Source: Mycobacterium helveticum (GTDB lineage: Bacteria; Actinomycetota; Actinomycetes; Mycobacteriales; Mycobacteriaceae). From it: 32,000 bases of DNA. Where the stretch lies: NCBI RefSeq assembly GCF_007714205.1, contig NZ_VMQU01000028.1, positions 1-32,000 of the forward strand, given 5' to 3'. The notes beneath the pieces are model-generated. The model was not told the origin of the DNA. It made no database searches and saw only the letters and a program-made list of their open reading frames with translations. Positions 17,640-25,174 of this stretch are shown here, one piece after another. Within the stretch, counting starts at the first letter, position 1. The number at the start of each line of letters is the position of its first letter. Both the position numbers and the translations under genes were made by a program.

Positions 17640-17821
17640 GACGCTCCCTGCGTAACAAGGGATTCCTGTTGTGGGCATGCCTCATGGGCGATCTCCTCGA
17701 CCGCGCCGCCGCAGAAATGCGGCACTCGGGCGGAGGCGGCGCGCGGGTGCCGGTGCGTGTCCTGGTGGGTGGCGGCCTCTTCGGAAATTTCGGCAAAGCT
17801 CAGCAGGCGAACGCCGGTCAT
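17636..17821 (-). CDS. Candidate small protein (61 aa), first gene of the dehydrogenase operon
   Basis: ATG 17821 is preceded by GGGGAGGGGGACG (strong SD at correct spacing). The stop overlaps the dehydrogenase start in ATGA (17636-17639). No family was recognised and codon-3 GC is only moderate. Confidence 0.45.
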   Translation of the reverse strand: MTGVRLLSFAEISEEAATHQDTHRHPRAASARVPHFCGGAVEEIAHEACPQQESLVTQGAS

Positions 17822-17843
17822 CGTCCCCCTCCCCGTACGTAAC

Positions 17844-17859
17844 GTTCACTGTACTGAAC
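17844..17859. promoter_or_regulatory. Inverted repeat GTTCA-N6-TGAAC in the divergent regulator/operon intergenic region
   Basis: Lies 23-38 nt upstream of ATG 17821, in the most AT-rich part of the 125-nt region between that ATG and the XRE-cupin regulator gene. An additional GTGAAC sits at 17928. Confidence 0.35.
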
Positions 17860-17946
17860 ACTTTGGGTAGTTTCGCTGTCAAATCCGATCGTTTATAGTC
17901 TTCGGCACGACGGTTGCGTGCACTTCGGTGAACAGGTGGAGTGCTC

Positions 17947-18612
17947 ATGGCGGACAGAAGGGCTACCGGCGCGACGCCCGCGGTGACCGAGGGCCTCGGC
18001 GGGCGGCTGCGTCAGGTCCGCACCGCGCGAAACATGTCCGTCAGGGAACTCGCGCGCCGGGCCGGATGTTCCGCCAGCCTCGTCTCCCAGGTGGAACGGG
18101 GCGTGACCGCGCCGTCGGCCAACGTGGTCTACGCGCTGGCGAACGAACTCGGCGTCGCGCTGGACACGCTGTTCGGGACGGCACCGATCGAGACCGCGGC
18201 GCCCCCGTCCGCGCCGCCCGGCGCGACCGGTTCATGGGGCCGTGCAATCGGGCCCGACGGCGCAGGCATCCTGCAAAAGGCGAACGGGCGCAACACCATC
18301 CAGCTGTCCACGGGGGTGCGCTGGGAGCGCCTCACGCCGGCCCGCGACAACCGGGTCGATTTCCTCGAGGTCGTCTACGCGCCCGGCGGCCAATCCTCCG
18401 GCAACGGCCAGGCCATCCGGCACGGTGGCCGCGAATACCTCTACGTCCTCGAGGGAGAACTCGAGGCCGTCATCGGATTCGACACGTTGCGGCTGTCGGA
18501 AGGGGATTCCCTGGCATTCGACCCCGCGACGCCGCATCACTACCGCAACCCCACGGCCGCGACCGCCCGCGCCCTGTCCGTCGTCGTCCACGACCCTCAC
18601 GCGGCGGACTGA
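17947..18612 (+). CDS. XRE-family HTH transcriptional regulator with a C-terminal cupin domain
   Basis: HTH LGGRLRQVRTARNMSVRELARRAGCSASLVSQVERG. The cupin part is HGGREYLYVLEGELE...GDSLAFD...PHHYRN. ATG 17947 is 7 nt after GGTGGAG; the track start GTG 17941 is too close to that SD. Confidence 0.9.
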   Translation: MADRRATGATPAVTEGLGGRLRQVRTARNMSVRELARRAGCSASLVSQVERGVTAPSANVVYALANELGVALDTLFGTAPIETAAPPSAPPGATGSWGRAIGPDGAGILQKANGRNTIQLSTGVRWERLTPARDNRVDFLEVVYAPGGQSSGNGQAIRHGGREYLYVLEGELEAVIGFDTLRLSEGDSLAFDPATPHHYRNPTAATARALSVVVHDPHAAD

Positions 18613-19061
18613 GTGCGCAGGTTGCGTGCGCCCCGGACATTGCGAAGACCCGAGCAGTTCACGCACCCGACGCACCCCACACAGTCGACGCAGCGCGCAC
18701 AACCCACGCAGGCGGCGCACCGCGTGCAGGCGATGCACGCCACGCACGCCACGCATTCGCGCACCAGAACGCTCAACACCGTCAGCACGCTGCCGACCAC
18801 CCCGACGCTGCCCGCGGTGCCCACGGAGCCGACCACCCCGACGCTGCCCGCGGTGCCCACGGAGCCGGCCACCCCGACGCTGCCCGCGGTGCCCGCGGAG
18901 CCGGCCACCCCGACGGCGCCCGCGGTCGCGACCGAGCCGGCCACTGCGACGGCGCCCGCGGTCGCGACCGAGCCGGCCACCGCGAGGCTGTCGCTGACGG
19001 CGATCGCGCCCGCCGTCGAGCGGTCGTCGAAAGTGACCGTCGAACCGTGCCGCACTGCCAC
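18597..19061 (-). CDS. Repeat-built hypothetical protein: (SVGTAG)-type hexads x10, a hydrophobic stretch, then (x-Cys-Val) x12 and a basic tail; start uncertain
   Basis: Minus frame of track ORF 18597..19655, downstream of the cutinase stop. The translation is ...GSTVTFDDRSTAGAIAVSDSLAVAG(SVATAGAVAVAG...SVGTAGSVGVVG)SVLTVLSVLVRECVACVACIACTRCAACVGCARCVDCVGCVGCVNCSGLRNVRGARNLRTQSAA. Both repeat periods (36 and 9 bp) are multiples of 3. G-rich codon position 1 favours this frame over the plus-strand shadow. No convincing SD or start was found; candidates are GTG 19061 or 19055, TTG 19118, or ATG 19129 with a frameshift. Confidence 0.4.
   Translation of the reverse strand: MAVRHGSTVTFDDRSTAGAIAVSDSLAVAGSVATAGAVAVAGSVATAGAVGVAGSAGTAGSVGVAGSVGTAGSVGVVGSVGTAGSVGVVGSVLTVLSVLVRECVACVACIACTRCAACVGCARCVDCVGCVGCVNCSGLRNVRGARNLRTQSAA
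18651..18758. repeat. 9-bp periodic region (12 units) encoding x-Cys-Val triplets on the minus strand
   Basis: The plus strand reads as successive ...acgcacgcc/acgcacccg-type nonamers. Minus translation: ECV ACV ACI ACT RCA ACV GCA RCV DCV GCV GCV NCS. Confidence 0.85.
18793..18972. repeat. Tandem 36-bp repeat, 5 copies, plus a sixth degenerate copy at 18973-19008
   Basis: Units start at 18793, 18829, 18865, 18901 and 18937. Units 1 and 2 are identical (ccgaccaccccgacgctgcccgcggtgcccacggag); the others differ at a few positions. Confidence 0.95.
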
Positions 19062-19159
19062 GCATTCATCATGCCAAGGTGGCCGATGATCGTCACCTCT
19101 GCGCGCGTGCGCGTCCAACGCGGCGTCATCCCATCGCCGACCGGGGCGGCCGCTGGGTG

Positions 19160-19912
19160 TCAGTTGCCGAAGCCGCCGCCGGCGGTGGCGCCGGCCACCG
19201 AGACCGGTCCCTGCGGGCCGGGGGTGCCGTTGATGCGGCTGGCGGCGAAGGCGGCGCCCCTGTCGATCATGCTGACGTCGTCGGTGTAGGTGTTGTGGGC
19301 GGCGAAGTTGAGCCCGTCGGAGCACACCGGGTCGTCTTGGACGCAGACCTTGATGGTCTTGGCCTGATACGGCGGGCCGATGGCCAGCGGCGGCTCGCCG
19401 AGGAAGTTCATGGCGCGCTCGTTGGGTGTGCCGAACAGGACGACCGAGGAGACGTGGTTGGCGACCTCGGGGCTCAGGGGTTTGGGCGCGGTGGCCGGGT
19501 CGATGCCGTCGGGCACCTGCGCGGAGGTGACGAAGCCCATGATGGCGGCGCCCTGGGAGTAGCCGCTGAGCACCATCTTGGTGTTGGGGCATTGCTGGGC
19601 CATGGAGAGCACGTGTGCCCCGGCGTCTCTGACGCCGTCGATGCCGGTGTCCCACTGGTCGCTGGCGGGGTAGTTGACCGAGTAGACGTCGAAGGACTTG
19701 CCGGCCAGGCGGGGGCGCAGGTCGTCGATGAAGGCCTGCACGGTCGGGCCGGGGCCGGGTTCCTCCCCGGTGCCGCGGGCGGCCACCACTTGAACGTCCG
19801 GGCAGCCCTGGGCGGCGGCGAACGGAACGGCGGATGTCAGGACGGAGGTGCCCAGGCCCGCCGCCGCGACGGCGGCCGGACCGAGAAAACGAGCGATGTG
19901 ACGTGTGATCAT
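19160..19912 (-). CDS. Secreted cutinase-family serine esterase
   Basis: N-terminal signal peptide, CPDVQVVAARGTGE, nucleophile elbow GYSQGA and conserved Cys pairs. Confidence 0.9.
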   Translation of the reverse strand: MITRHIARFLGPAAVAAAGLGTSVLTSAVPFAAAQGCPDVQVVAARGTGEEPGPGPTVQAFIDDLRPRLAGKSFDVYSVNYPASDQWDTGIDGVRDAGAHVLSMAQQCPNTKMVLSGYSQGAAIMGFVTSAQVPDGIDPATAPKPLSPEVANHVSSVVLFGTPNERAMNFLGEPPLAIGPPYQAKTIKVCVQDDPVCSDGLNFAAHNTYTDDVSMIDRGAAFAASRINGTPGPQGPVSVAGATAGGGFGN

Positions 19913-20258
19913 GCGGCTATACTCCCGATGCGGACGGATCTCAAACCTACGAATTACCCGACCTATCTATTTGTGCACAGGATCGCCGAATCCGCAACCG
20001 GCATGCGCAAATTGGACTTCGCGGCGCCGGTCGGTCGGACGCGCATCGGGCCTCCCCCCGGGGCGCCGCGGGGCACCGAAACTCTTGCCGAGCAACGGTT
20101 TTCTCGGCGCGCGGGGTTCGGCCATGGTCAACCGCCCAGATTGCGTGGCGCCGTGTCCGGTTCGGCGGCCCGGTTCGGCGTCACCGGAGAATCGGCACGG
20201 CCCGCGGGTGGGTCCCGACGCGGGGCGCCGTGTCGGTGGGCCGGCGTACGTTCGCGCC

Positions 20259-20585
20259 ATGAGTGCTTCCAGGTCGGGCTCGGGCGGCGGGTTCGGTGGC
20301 TTCGTGGCGGTGCTGGTGCTGATCGCGATCATCATCAAGCTGATTTGGTGGATCCTCGCGACGATCGCCCTGGCGGGGTTGTTCTTCCTCCTACGCGCCG
20401 TGGTGCGCTGGTACGGCAGGCGTGCGGCCGCGCGCGCGCGACGGCGACGGGGGCTGGCGGCGCGCGCCGATCAGCAACACAACTGGGTGCTGCGCGGCGA
20501 CGACCGCGGCATCTACGGCCCCGAGGGTGCCGCGCTCATGCACGATCTGTTCCCGGCAAGGCGGCCGCTGCGGAGGCCGCCGTGA
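20259..20585 (+). CDS. Small membrane protein (two hydrophobic helices, Arg-rich tail)
   Basis: Internal ATG 20259 of track ORF 19905..20585. Sequence: MSASRSGSGGGFGGFVAVLVLIAIIIKLIWWILATIALAGLFFLLRAVV. The stop overlaps the next start in GTGA (20582-20585). Confidence 0.65.
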   Translation: MSASRSGSGGGFGGFVAVLVLIAIIIKLIWWILATIALAGLFFLLRAVVRWYGRRAAARARRRRGLAARADQQHNWVLRGDDRGIYGPEGAALMHDLFPARRPLRRPP

Positions 20586-21373
20586 CCCGGTTCGGTTGCT
20601 ACCATCGCGCGGTGAGTGATGGGACCGCACGCGTCCGGCCGGTTTTGCGGCGCGACCTGCTCAGATGCGCGGGGGTGGCGTCGGTCGCCATCGGTCTCGC
20701 CGCGTTGGCCCGCGTCCCCCGCGCGGCCGCCGCCGGCTCCGGGGTCGTCTTCCTCGACGCGGGCCACAACGCCATCAGCGACGCGTCGATGGCCCGGCAG
20801 GTGCCCAACGGCCGGGGCAGCACCAAACCGTGCAACACCTCGGGCACCGCGACTGCCGACGGCTACCCCGAGCACGCGTTCAACTGGGCCGTCGTCACGC
20901 TGGTCGGTCAGTCGCTGAATCAGCAGGGGATTCGCACCCAGCTGTCCCGCGACGGCGACGACGGCGTCGGGCCCTGCATCGACCAGCGTGCGAACCTGGC
21001 CAACGCGGCGCGACCCGAGGCGATCGTGAGCATCCACGCCGACGGCGGTCCGCCGTCGGGGTCGGGATTCCATGTCAACTACTCCAGCCCGCCGTTGAAC
21101 GAGGTCCAGGCCGTCCCCGCCGTCCGGCTGGCCCACGCGATGCGCGATGCGTTGGTGCAGTGGGGTTTTCGCCCGGCCACCTACATCGGCTCCGACGGTC
21201 TTTACGGCCGCGACGACCTGGCCGGTCTCAACCTCGCCGAATACCCGGCGGTCCTGGTCGAACTGGGCAACATGAAAAACGTGGACGACGCGACGCGGAT
21301 GCAAAGCCCCAACGGCCGGGCCGGGTACGCCGCCGCCGTCACCGCGGGGATTGTCGCGTTCCTGAACTCCTAG
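20582..21373 (+). CDS. N-acetylmuramoyl-L-alanine amidase (Amidase_3 family), exported
   Basis: The 3' part of track ORF 19079..21373. RRDLLRCAGVASVAIGLAALA is a signal (Tat-like RR). Zn-ligand blocks are VFLDAGHNA, IVSIHADGG and LVELGNMKN. The start is GTG 20582; GTG 20612 is an alternative. Confidence 0.85.
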   Translation: MTRFGCYHRAVSDGTARVRPVLRRDLLRCAGVASVAIGLAALARVPRAAAAGSGVVFLDAGHNAISDASMARQVPNGRGSTKPCNTSGTATADGYPEHAFNWAVVTLVGQSLNQQGIRTQLSRDGDDGVGPCIDQRANLANAARPEAIVSIHADGGPPSGSGFHVNYSSPPLNEVQAVPAVRLAHAMRDALVQWGFRPATYIGSDGLYGRDDLAGLNLAEYPAVLVELGNMKNVDDATRMQSPNGRAGYAAAVTAGIVAFLNS

Positions 21374-23710: not shown

Positions 23711-24514
23711 GTGGGTGAGCGAAGCATCAAGCAGACACGAGACGAAAGCTGGCAACGCGTCACCGAGTTGCCGTTGGCCTTGGTCGCCATCGCCTTCATC
23801 GCCCTGTACTCGGTACAAGTGCTGGGCCACCTCGGGCACGCGGGGAGGCACATCCTGTGGATGTCGAGCTGGGTCTCCTGGTGTCTTTTCGTCGGCGACT
23901 ACCTGGTCCGCCTCAAACTGGCGTCCGACAAGCGGCACTGGTTCGTCCATCACCCGTTCGACCTGCTGGTCGTCGTGCTCCCACTGATGGGACCGCTGCT
24001 GCTCCTGCGACTGGCCGTGCTGGCCGGGGCGTTGCAGAAGGCCGTCGGTATGGCGGTGCGCGGCCGCATCCTCACGTACACCGTCACGGGTGTGTGCCTG
24101 CTGATCTATGTGTCGTCGCTGGCCGTCCTCGACTTCGAACGCGACCACCTCGGAGCCAGGATCACGTCGTTCGGCAAGGCGTTGTGGTGGGCCGTCACCA
24201 CCGTGACCACCGTCGGCTACGGCGACCTGTACCCCGTCACCGTCCCCGGCCGGCTGGTTGCGGTGATGCTGATGATCGGCGGCATCACCCTGGTGGGCGT
24301 GGTCACCGCGTCGCTGGCCTCGTGGATCGTCGAGCGGGTGTCGGAGACCGACACCGCGAACCGGGCGACCTCGTCCGCCGAAATCGCCGAGCTGCGCCAC
24401 GAAGTTCGCCGGCTGGCCGAACAGCTACGGCGAGTCGCCGAGCACGCCGAACTGGAGTCGCAGCGGTCGTTGACGGCTACCGGAGGAGCTGGCCGATGGT
24501 CGTCACGACGATGA
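23711..24514 (+). CDS. Potassium channel family protein (ion-transport family, TVGYGD selectivity filter)
   Basis: TTVTTVGYGDLYP filter, multiple TM helices and a C-terminal coiled-coil-like tail. GTG 23711 is 8 nt after GGAGGG. Confidence 0.9.
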   Translation: MGERSIKQTRDESWQRVTELPLALVAIAFIALYSVQVLGHLGHAGRHILWMSSWVSWCLFVGDYLVRLKLASDKRHWFVHHPFDLLVVVLPLMGPLLLLRLAVLAGALQKAVGMAVRGRILTYTVTGVCLLIYVSSLAVLDFERDHLGARITSFGKALWWAVTTVTTVGYGDLYPVTVPGRLVAVMLMIGGITLVGVVTASLASWIVERVSETDTANRATSSAEIAELRHEVRRLAEQLRRVAEHAELESQRSLTATGGAGRWSSRR

Positions 24515-24803
24515 GCAGCAGCGAGGCCACCCCGATGACGTAGATCGGCCGCCGGGCGGTGATCCTGGTGCCGATCGGCCGCTGCAGTATCCGCTGGCGC
24601 CGAACCGCGATGCAGTAGGTGAGCAACGCCACCGCACCGGCCAGCACCGCCGGGATCACCCCCGCCGGCCCGAGCGGGCCGTGCAAATTCCTGATCATCA
24701 GCAGCGCGCCGTTGACCAGGAACGCGAACGAGGTGCGCGACCAGGACAGCGCCGTCCGCTCCGCCTGAAGCCCGCGGTCGGAGGGGGCCGGTGCGTCACT
24801 CAA
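24477..24803 (-). CDS. DUF202 (YidH-like) membrane protein
   Basis: [17 protein letters not shown] motif. TTG 24803 overlaps the upstream stop (TTGA). There is a 38-nt convergent overlap with the channel gene. Confidence 0.75.
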
Positions 24804-25174
24804 GCCAGTACCGCCTTGGCGATGACCAGCCCGAGCGCGACGAGCCCGACCAGGCTGAGGCCCACCGCGAGGTACATCGGCGAGGGGTGACGGGGCAAGG
24901 GGTCGCCGTGGCGCATGGCCCGGTCCGCTTGCTGCCAGCGCAGCAACCCCATGCCGCTGGTGAGGATGGCCAGCACCGCGAGGCCCACGCCCAGCCCGCG
25001 GCGTGCGCCGGGAACGGTCAGCTCCGGAACCAGTTGCACCAGTGCGACGGCGGCGGCGAGTAACCCCAGTGCGGTCCGCTGCCAGGCCAGGAACGTCCGT
25101 TCGTTGGCGAAGGTGAACCGGTAGTCGGGTTCTTCCCGTCCGGCGCTGTCGGCGTCATCGGCCACGAGGCACAT
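24800..25174 (-). CDS. DUF202 (YidH-like) membrane protein
   Basis: [18 protein letters not shown] motif and three hydrophobic helices. ATG 25174. Confidence 0.8.

Follow-up and report, generated by a model that had tools for sequence, protein, structure and literature searches.

A conserved, mostly unannotated Actinomycetota gene family with hexad repeats and a cysteine at every third residue, seen from a locus of Mycobacterium helveticum

A 32,000-nucleotide stretch of Mycobacterium helveticum DNA (RefSeq assembly GCF_007714205.1, contig NZ_VMQU01000028.1, positions 1 to 32,000 of the forward strand; hereafter the window) carries two internal periodicities, of 36 bp and 9 bp, back to back. 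A minus-strand open reading frame (ORF) runs through both and reads as Gly/Val/Ala/Ser hexads followed by a Cys at every third residue, and the plus strand over the same letters is open as well. Which of the two frames, if either, is a gene, and what would a protein built in this way be? We found that the minus-strand frame at 18597-19061 is almost certainly a real protein-coding gene under purifying selection, and that its product, judged by sequence comparison, is a member of a conserved Actinomycetota protein family, for the most part without annotation, that is composed of hexads, a Cxx array and a basic tail. The two competing frames were as follows.

18597-19061, minus strand: coding sequence of the repeat protein, 154 aa, with a GTG start at 19061-19059 and a TGA stop at 18599-18597.
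18613-19089, plus strand: antisense "shadow" ORF, Pro/Thr/His-rich, 158 aa, open in the window.

The codon-position G+C of the minus frame was 0.72/0.65/0.87, with the first position (GC1) above the second (GC2), and the neighbouring genes showed the same order (~0.66-0.72/0.50-0.56/0.86-0.92). For the coding sequence at 18597-19061 the values were 0.70/0.66/0.91. The antisense frame, which has its third position in common with the Cys frame, gave 0.65/0.71/0.87. The comparison of GC1 and GC2, which an earlier note on this DNA had proposed, therefore singled out the minus strand. The same note had asked for a test of frame conservation. The hexads, linker, Cys array and tail stood in one open frame in all 86 homologous loci, with no frame-breaking indels, despite a hexad number that ranged from 4 to 18. 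Every other frame, the shadow included, was open in only 16-56 of the 86 and so had stops in at least 30, and conservation of the plus frame alone was not seen. The ratio of nonsynonymous to synonymous substitution rates (dN/dS; Nei-Gojobori, 165 aligned nucleotides, 43 sequences) was lowest in the Cys frame, at 0.22; the shadow frame gave 0.48 and the other four frames 1.2-1.8. Cys codons in the family were TGC in 421 cases and TGT in 115. We took the minus strand as coding because GC1 exceeded GC2 there only, the frame was open in 86 of 86 loci and dN/dS was 0.22 against 0.48.

These results bear directly on the converse reading, that the plus-strand Pro/Thr-rich ORF is the true gene and the Cys frame its shadow. 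The plus-strand ORF is indeed open in the window, as the earlier note had stated, with a GTG one base past the regulator stop codon, and its high-GC third codon position is common to the minus frame. However, its GC1 is below its GC2, contrary to all neighbouring genes, antisense frames contain stops in at least 38 of the 86 homologous loci, its dN/dS is the higher of the two, and the conservative V/I/L and G/A exchanges and the invariant Cys are confined to the minus frame. We regard this reading as close to negligible. In homologues with C-Y-N-C, a TGC-TAC codon pair for Cys-Tyr would put a TAG in the shadow frame, as far as can be deduced from the protein sequences.

Both periodic stretches were placed between a regulator gene and a cutinase gene, in a window with a G+C content of ~68.6%.

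17941-18612, plus strand: XRE-cupin regulator gene (Pfam).
19160-19912, minus strand: cutinase gene (Pfam).
18597-18612: convergent overlap of 16 nt between the 3' ends of the repeat-protein gene and the XRE-cupin regulator gene (ORF map and Pfam).

Tandem Repeats Finder reported a period of 36 bp with 5.5 copies, 90% matches and a score of 265 at 18792-18990, and a repeat search showed six units at 36-nt spacing. The two linker-proximal units (18792-18882) were 98-100% identical to each other, which suggests a recent slippage duplication at that end of the array. The units further upstream in the gene were diverged (78-91% identity). A pattern search of the window for twelve TGY codons at exact 9-nt spacing gave a single match, at 18654-18755 on the minus strand; neither this pattern nor its 5-Cys sub-pattern was found in 100 dinucleotide-preserving shuffles. 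The 9-bp periodicity is a periodicity of codons and no clean DNA tandem repeat, and Tandem Repeats Finder showed short 9-bp patches only. One minus-strand frame was open through the 36-bp array and the Cys codons, as first described, and the 16-nt overlap with the regulator was likewise confirmed. Copy-number variation, which the earlier note had predicted from the near-identical units, was found between species, always as whole hexads and with the frame kept.

Near-identical 36-bp units between two genes may also be read as non-coding repetitive DNA, an intergenic repeat of the kind of mycobacterial interspersed repetitive units or variable-number tandem repeats, whose GC-rich periodic sequence happens to leave a frame open. 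Gene callers seldom report the gene, its start has no visible Shine-Dalgarno sequence, and a scan for sigma-70 consensus promoters and terminators gave no match. Against this reading, the conservation is at the protein level, with 50-80% identity over two classes, the changes at Cys codons are synonymous, dN/dS is low, indels are always of whole hexads and the non-repetitive tail is conserved. Furthermore, the interval 17800-20100 gave no Rfam match, and the repeat search showed no terminal inverted repeats around the gene. We consider a non-coding repeat very improbable.

The in-frame start candidates GTG 19061, GTG 19055 and TTG 19118 were all recovered as listed in the earlier note, which had found no convincing start. 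The four closest orthologues (L009, L011, L016 and L022) begin with ATG at "MAV/MAI..W(D/E)S", aligned with the window GTG 19061 (MAVRHGS...). The start is therefore GTG 19061, giving a product of 154 aa. As the earlier note had remarked, there is no visible Shine-Dalgarno sequence, and its absence is compatible with a leaderless mRNA. Leaderless mRNAs are common in mycobacteria. One element was found directly before the start.

19062-19077, minus strand: upstream motif TTGGCATGATGAATGC, related to a (C)TGACATGMTGA motif.

The (C)TGACATGMTGA motif (TTGGCATGATGAAT in the window) precedes the start codon by 7-12 nt in some of the orthologues, among them L013, L015, L018, L019, L022, L023 and L047. 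CTGACA/TGACAT was enriched ~11-fold and present in 13-14 of 83 upstream regions. Its position varied relative to the reading frame, so the motif is conserved as DNA; it could serve as the extended -10 element of a transcript without a leader, or as an operator.

The protein read from GTG 19061 falls into five parts.

18990-19061, minus strand: N-terminal segment, residues 1-24 (MAVRHGSTVTFDDRSTAGAIAVSD), acidic, clade-variable and without a signal peptide.
18792-18989, minus strand: hexad region, residues 25-90, ~5.5 units of 36 bp or 12 aa.
18756-18791, minus strand: hydrophobic linker, residues 91-102 (SVLTVLSVLVRE), which keeps the period-3 register from the hexads into the Cys array.
18654-18755, minus strand: Cys array, residues 103-136, 12 Cys, one per three residues.
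18600-18653, minus strand: basic tail, residues 137-154 (SGLRNVRGARNLRTQSAA), conserved, with G-L-R invariant or nearly so.

The translation bore out the order of hydrophobic stretch, twelve Cys and basic tail given in the earlier note. An N-terminus of the form "MAV.W(D/E)S..." was common to the closest mycobacterial orthologues only. The suggested envelope localisation is without support, because the protein has no signal peptide. Hexads were present as described, but ~12 were recognisable and not ten. Their family consensus was S(96%)-[V/A/I]-[A/G]-[T/V]-[A/V]-G(76%), with Pro at 0.2% of the region. At hexad position 4, T and V alternated in 89% of adjacent hexads over the family, and the true unit is therefore of 12 residues, S-φ-a-T-a-G-S-φ-a-V-a-G. 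The resemblance to β-helix hexapeptide repeats did not survive as stated, since each hexad is half of this unit and the Pfam Hexapep model (PF00132; [LIV]-[GAED]-X2-[STAV]-X, 18-residue coils) gave no match at E<=1.

In the Cys array, the twelve Cys and their exact spacing were as described, but the triplets could not be called x-Cys-Val, with Val directly after Cys in 7 of 12 only. The family triplet consensus was C(100%)-[V/I/L/T]-[G/A/D/R/N], repeated in 10-12 triplets, and charged positions were fixed at C-R-R-C or C-T-R-C and in a D-C-x-D-C region. The period-3 register (S/T/V or C, then hydrophobic, then small) was unbroken from the first hexad to the tail. Family tails were of the type N-C-S-G-L-R-N-A-V-G-L-R-D-V-H-A or G-C-V-G-L-R-G-A-V-G-Q-R-G-V-R-A. 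The grand average of hydropathy (GRAVY) of the window protein was +0.96, residues 25-100 (76 consecutive residues) were uncharged, and the Kyte-Doolittle 19-residue maximum of 2.25 was at residues 92-110, where the linker passes into the array. The number of Ser showed no relation to the number of Cys (r = 0.03), and a stoichiometric model of lanthionine-type Ser/Cys pairing was rejected on this result. The C-terminal residue was Ala in 77% of family members (-AA in 29 of 84, -HA in 15 and -RA in 14). Ala-Ala at the C-terminus is reminiscent of ssrA-type ClpXP degrons, and one may speculate that proteolysis holds the repeat protein at a low level.

How far does this architecture extend? An initial protein search recovered 15 unnamed proteins of this architecture, whose N-termini were over-called and non-homologous. 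At one genome per species, a pattern scan gave at least 600 matches; tblastn confirmed 174 of these, and 80 were retained. The family is thus present at no fewer than 174 tblastn-confirmed loci of species-representative genomes from two classes, and its carriers include Mycobacterium, Mycolicibacterium, Pseudonocardia, Actinomycetospora and Acidimicrobiia (among them Ilumatobacteraceae and Desertimonas). In Pfam-A and NCBIfam no model was found for the window protein, only a marginal Collagen match and sub-threshold matches to collagen-like adhesins and HxsA4; the homology search asked for in the earlier note therefore gave no named family in these databases, yet a large set of loci by tblastn.

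Protein collections contained few members. With the C-terminal profile, 5.8 billion clusters yielded no more than 39 proteins. Almost all of them were fragments from metagenomes, and the one NCBI name among them was "hypothetical protein, partial". A full HMMER pass over 1.84 billion representatives gave 208 matches at E<=1e-3 and 33 at E<=1e-10. By exact look-up in a collection of 15 billion proteins, ten delimited Cys-frame proteins (from the window and isolate genomes) were absent, as were six antisense ORFs overlapping the gene. From this scarcity it follows that the gene is mostly uncalled, though present in many RefSeq genomes. At one locus (P0013; L004:9708-10439) the gene call switches frame mid-gene, after the hexads, and mis-called relatives have N-termini over-extended into neighbouring genes. 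A literature search on periodic-Cys proteins in mycobacteria returned nothing relevant beyond Haft 2009 (PMC2674419). The family lacks a description in Pfam, NCBIfam and the literature searched, while the idea of periodic Cys is already known from Bacillus peptides of ribosomal synthesis and post-translational modification (RiPPs).

The genomic surroundings gave no partner for the gene. No shared neighbours were found across six metagenome contigs. ORF clustering within ±8 kb of 87 loci recovered only the gene itself and its antisense shadow as constant; the next commonest cluster, a paralogue-rich short-chain dehydrogenase/reductase family, was present at 19 loci in scattered positions. The 123 immediate neighbours at 65 non-redundant loci carried 166 Pfam families, of which the most frequent (Acyl-CoA dehydrogenase, C-terminal domain) was present in 6. 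Among the 25 commonest neighbour families, all of which had at least 2 members, there was none of the YcaO, lanthipeptide or radical-SAM type. In the window, the ±10 kb around the gene contained no RiPP enzyme, only ordinary enzymes, transporters and regulators. With no conserved partner by contigs, clustering or neighbour Pfam families, guilt by association fails, and the repeat-protein gene stands alone.

Some short-range synteny was kept. In L012 a cutinase gene lies directly upstream with the same placement as in the window (82% identity), L010 has an amidase and an α/β-hydrolase in common with the window, and ten Mycolicibacterium loci have MmpS/MmpL genes downstream in common. The synteny within the Mycolicibacterium clade points to vertical inheritance. 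On one metagenome contig (L006; 6759-7331 and 754-1785) resolvase genes precede the homologue by ~0.6 kb and IS110-type transposase genes lie ~6 kb away, an association not seen at the other loci. A reading as a mobile element was rejected, there being no terminal inverted repeats and synteny being kept within a clade. A tblastn search of plasmids with the C-terminal part gave no match. Viral contigs likewise contained no family member, and their scan gave distant Cxx arrays only.

Further along the window, very long spurious frames at 19079-21373 (plus strand, 764 aa) and 18597-19655 (minus strand, 352 aa) cross the cutinase and neighbouring genes, as artefacts of high-GC DNA typically do; towards its C-terminus the 764-aa frame resembles an N-acetylmuramoyl-L-alanine amidase by sequence, and this part is 79% identical to its L010 counterpart. 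Two adjacent DUF202 genes (24477-25174, minus strand) beside a potassium-channel-like gene (23711-24514, plus strand) are unrelated to the repeat-protein gene.

The distant arrays are the widest relatives of the Cys array. Below family level, the profile found (Cxx)n arrays ending in C-x-G-L or L-R-G in low-GC bacteria and phages. These broader arrays have no Pfam model and belong to the PHROG family phrog_15341 (for example P0087, 1e-39). Residues 102-138 of the window protein matched positions 44-83 of the 276 of phrog_15341 at an E value of 5.4e-6; because the match covers only a small part of the profile, it indicates a shared module and not family membership. P0049 and P0035 are surrounded by phage genes, P0086 is a fusion of a ClpP-like protease, a Cxx array and Mu-like prophage protein I, and P0067 and P0069 carry several arrays interspersed with other segments. 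Other arrays of the broader set were found in P0070, at L088:8001-8264 and at L089:6014-6298, and weak matches to the set were found on contigs of giant-virus metagenome-assembled genomes. A tblastn search of phages with a phage-type Cxx protein gave no match. The non-Cys triplet positions were polar (T/D/N/K/E) in the phage-type arrays and hydrophobic plus small in the actinobacterial family, so that only Cys is constant across both groups. Such a pattern points to a folded module in which Cys supplies the core or the ligands and the remaining positions are exposed to the surroundings.

We modelled the window protein with AlphaFold2. The full-length model (22 sequences) had a mean predicted local distance difference test score (pLDDT) of 64.9 and a predicted template modelling score (pTM) of 0.38, with a 12-residue strand pattern in the hexads. 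Its Cys array scored pLDDT 85-88, with a β-bridge every third residue, at the residue after each Cys. The model of the C-terminal 70 residues (18 sequences; pLDDT 70.2, pTM 0.53) showed the same pattern, with longer strands 12 residues apart. Over both models, with or without the hexads, the array scored pLDDT 82-88. Foldseek gave no significant match in the PDB (best E 0.79 and 3.1), and both of its weak lists consisted mainly of β-solenoids: hexapeptide acyltransferases, pentapeptide-repeat proteins, tailspikes, ice-binding proteins and the Tenebrio antifreeze protein (1l1i). A PDB sequence search returned only PsaC ferredoxin-type motifs (CIGCTQC, CVGCKRC) at E ~8, which is not significant.

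The reading that we tentatively prefer, at somewhat less than an even chance, is a narrow β-solenoid of 12 residues per turn with a Cys core that is metal-bound or cross-linked. The chain would fold as a narrow, rod-like solenoid in which every third residue faces the core, and the last three turns would carry four Cys each. Either a bound metal (Zn, Cu, Fe or Fe-S) or disulfide or thioether cross-links would hold the resulting thiol ladder together. The hydrophobic exterior (V/I/A/G, with 76 residues uncharged) may drive membrane association or self-assembly, and repeat slippage may vary the length of the rod. The Cys array would then be a structural or ligand-binding module, and not a peptide core for chemical rewriting.

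A folded module was favoured because Cxx arrays occur inside multidomain phage proteins. A structural module was preferred over a RiPP core because all three triplet positions are constrained, array lengths are discrete and charged positions fixed; because hexads and array share one uninterrupted register, with a family-wide 12-residue unit; and because the array is modelled at the pLDDT given above, with weak Foldseek lists made up mainly of β-solenoids. Several points weigh against the Cys-core solenoid. The AlphaFold2 models are moderate overall (pLDDT 65-70, pTM 0.38-0.53) and come from shallow alignments, and AlphaFold2 tends to build solenoids for any repeat. None of the Foldseek matches is significant, and the arrangement with Cys inward and four per turn is a hypothesis deduced from the DSSP pattern and the Tenebrio antifreeze geometry. 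A cytoplasmic protein without a signal peptide would not easily keep disulfides, and no metal-homeostasis gene was linked to the locus. The hydropathy (GRAVY +0.96, Kyte-Doolittle peak 2.25) would fit a membrane or aggregating protein equally well. Finally, the absence of neighbouring enzymes leaves room for a RiPP, because heterocycloanthracin precursors lie far from their enzymes.

That last point leads to the reading of the protein as a RiPP precursor, in which enzymes encoded elsewhere would turn the Cys-Xaa-Xaa core into thiazol(in)es or thioethers and the basic tail would be a follower or recognition sequence. Cys every third residue defines the heterocycloanthracin precursors, which in Bacillus anthracis were likewise missed by gene finders and lie ~1.3 Mb from their maturation operon (PMC2674419). 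The gene described here is small, low-complexity and mostly uncalled, and Ser at 96% in the hexads and Cys at 100% in the array would fit residues that undergo chemistry. The distant phage-type Cxx proteins, and these only, matched the heterocycloanthracin model TIGR03601, at 17-21 bits against a cut-off of 35, whereas the window protein gave no match to it in the NCBIfam scan even at E<=1. There is no conserved N-terminal leader, the array and tail being the conserved parts, and the discrete array lengths and constrained inter-Cys residues differ from the free tripeptide indels and variable filler of the known precursors. At 154 aa with a 70-residue repeat region, the protein is far above typical precursor size. 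No RiPP-enzyme family was among the frequent neighbours, over 65 loci from several orders, or near the gene in the window. Homologous arrays sit in multidomain phage proteins, and Ser and Cys numbers are uncorrelated. We judge a RiPP precursor unlikely, at roughly one chance in several.

A membrane-embedded or self-aggregating hydrophobic protein, possibly phage-acquired (toxin- or holin-like, a glycine-zipper oligomer or a functional amyloid) and with Cys for cross-linking of oligomers, overlaps with the Cys-core solenoid and is, as a separate account, also doubtful. The strict period-3/12 pattern and the all-β AlphaFold2 models fit β-structure and not transmembrane helices, and charged residues (R/E, R, R, D) break the most hydrophobic stretch, although the GRAVY, the 76 uncharged residues, the hydropathy peak over linker and array start and the basic tail are as such a protein would have them. 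A phage origin would fit the variable genomic context and apparent own promoter, the array like phrog_15341, the one locus beside resolvase and IS110 genes and the hexads, which resemble phage tail-fibre and collagen-like minor-tail repeats and match tail-fibre PHROGs at ~1e-7. However, this tail-fibre similarity is compositional, no family member was on viral contigs or plasmids, and the Mycolicibacterium synteny points to vertical inheritance.

More speculative, and improbable to a somewhat greater degree, is an unrecognised fold: a minimal β-solenoid whose four-Cys-per-turn core would thread a linear metal or Fe-S stack, a metal-thiolate rod or "wire", as a module common to actinobacterial chromosomes and phage proteins. 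Its partner in the Actinomycetota fusion would be a hydrophobic solenoid of variable length, able to enter membranes or to form filaments. The alternative within this proposal is a new RiPP class, with a ~150-aa precursor, ~12 azoles or thioethers and unlinked enzymes.

The gene is conserved and under purifying selection in hundreds of actinobacterial genomes, environmental mycobacteria included, yet it is largely skipped by callers and unmodelled by family databases, and it shows how low-complexity, high-GC small genes are systematically lost in annotation. Its Cys pattern is among the most regular known, with 10-12 Cys at exact three-residue spacing that is invariant over two classes. Knowing the role of the array would tell what a widespread "dark" module does, be it as metal-thiolate core, cross-linked rod or modified peptide, and may offer a design principle for minimal β-solenoids or metal-binding peptides.

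We compared the protein with six known systems. Like collagen-like and phage tail-fibre Gly-X-Y repeats, it has Gly or Ala every third position over ~130 residues, and Pfam Collagen (PF01391) gave a marginal 28.1 bits against a cut-off of 27.2. In contrast to collagen, it has no proline and half of its "Gly" positions are Ala. The similarity to collagen and tail fibres is compositional, and a collagen helix is unlikely for the family. The left-handed β-helix of Hexapep proteins (PF00132) has in common with it a six-residue periodicity with aliphatic and small residues at fixed positions, and Hexapep acyltransferases dominate the weak Foldseek list of the full-length model, but the unit is 12 residues against 18 and there is no acyltransferase context. 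Among CxxCxxC metal-binding motifs (4Fe-4S ferredoxins such as PsaC, the CxxCxGxG of DnaJ and bacterial metallothioneins), the array's C-[IV]-[GAD]-C-x-x-C is locally the cluster-binding motif of ferredoxins. Its Cys run is much longer than in a 4Fe-4S ferredoxin and has no C-x-x-x-C-P ending; Pfam gave no Fer4 match in the window protein, and C-x2-C-x2-C-x3-C-P was absent.

The β-helix of the Tenebrio molitor antifreeze protein (TCTxSxxCxxAx, disulfide core; 1l1i) also has a 12-residue unit and was in both weak Foldseek lists, with a structural match that was not significant (E 2.4-3.9, TM-score 0.10-0.25). It is a very narrow solenoid of 12 residues per turn, with inward residues every third position (Cys, Ser, Cys, Ala) and hence a core of Cys and small residues. 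It differs in being secreted and eukaryotic and in having two Cys in each coil and an ice-binding Thr-x-Thr face, whereas the window protein would have four Cys per coil and a hydrophobic exterior, and has no signal peptide.

The earlier note knew of no described family with a Cys every third residue, but two exist, phrog_15341 and the heterocycloanthracin precursors. The arrays of phrog_15341 are capped like the window array, by C-x-G-L or L-R-G types. These proteins come from low- or mid-GC hosts, have polar filler and other N- and C-terminal domains, and are without the hexad region and the basic G-L-R...A tail. Heterocycloanthracins, from Bacillus, are peptides of 88 aa. Their N-terminal leader is conserved, their filler is of the Cys-Gly-Gly or Cys-Trp-Ser kind, tripeptide indels are frequent, and their genomic co-occurrence with a sagBCD-like operon has been demonstrated (PMC2674419). 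In contrast, the window protein has no leader homology, fixed array lengths, hydrophobic filler, hexads over 70 residues and a basic tail that is conserved, and no gene for a maturase (cyclodehydratase, dehydrogenase or docking scaffold) lies adjacent to its gene or within ±10 kb. What the window gene has in common with the heterocycloanthracin/sonorensin group (TIGR03601) is a low-complexity sequence that callers miss, a position that can be apart from partner genes, and a C-terminal run of Cys mostly every third residue, ~12-13 in that group and 12, at exact spacing, in the window.

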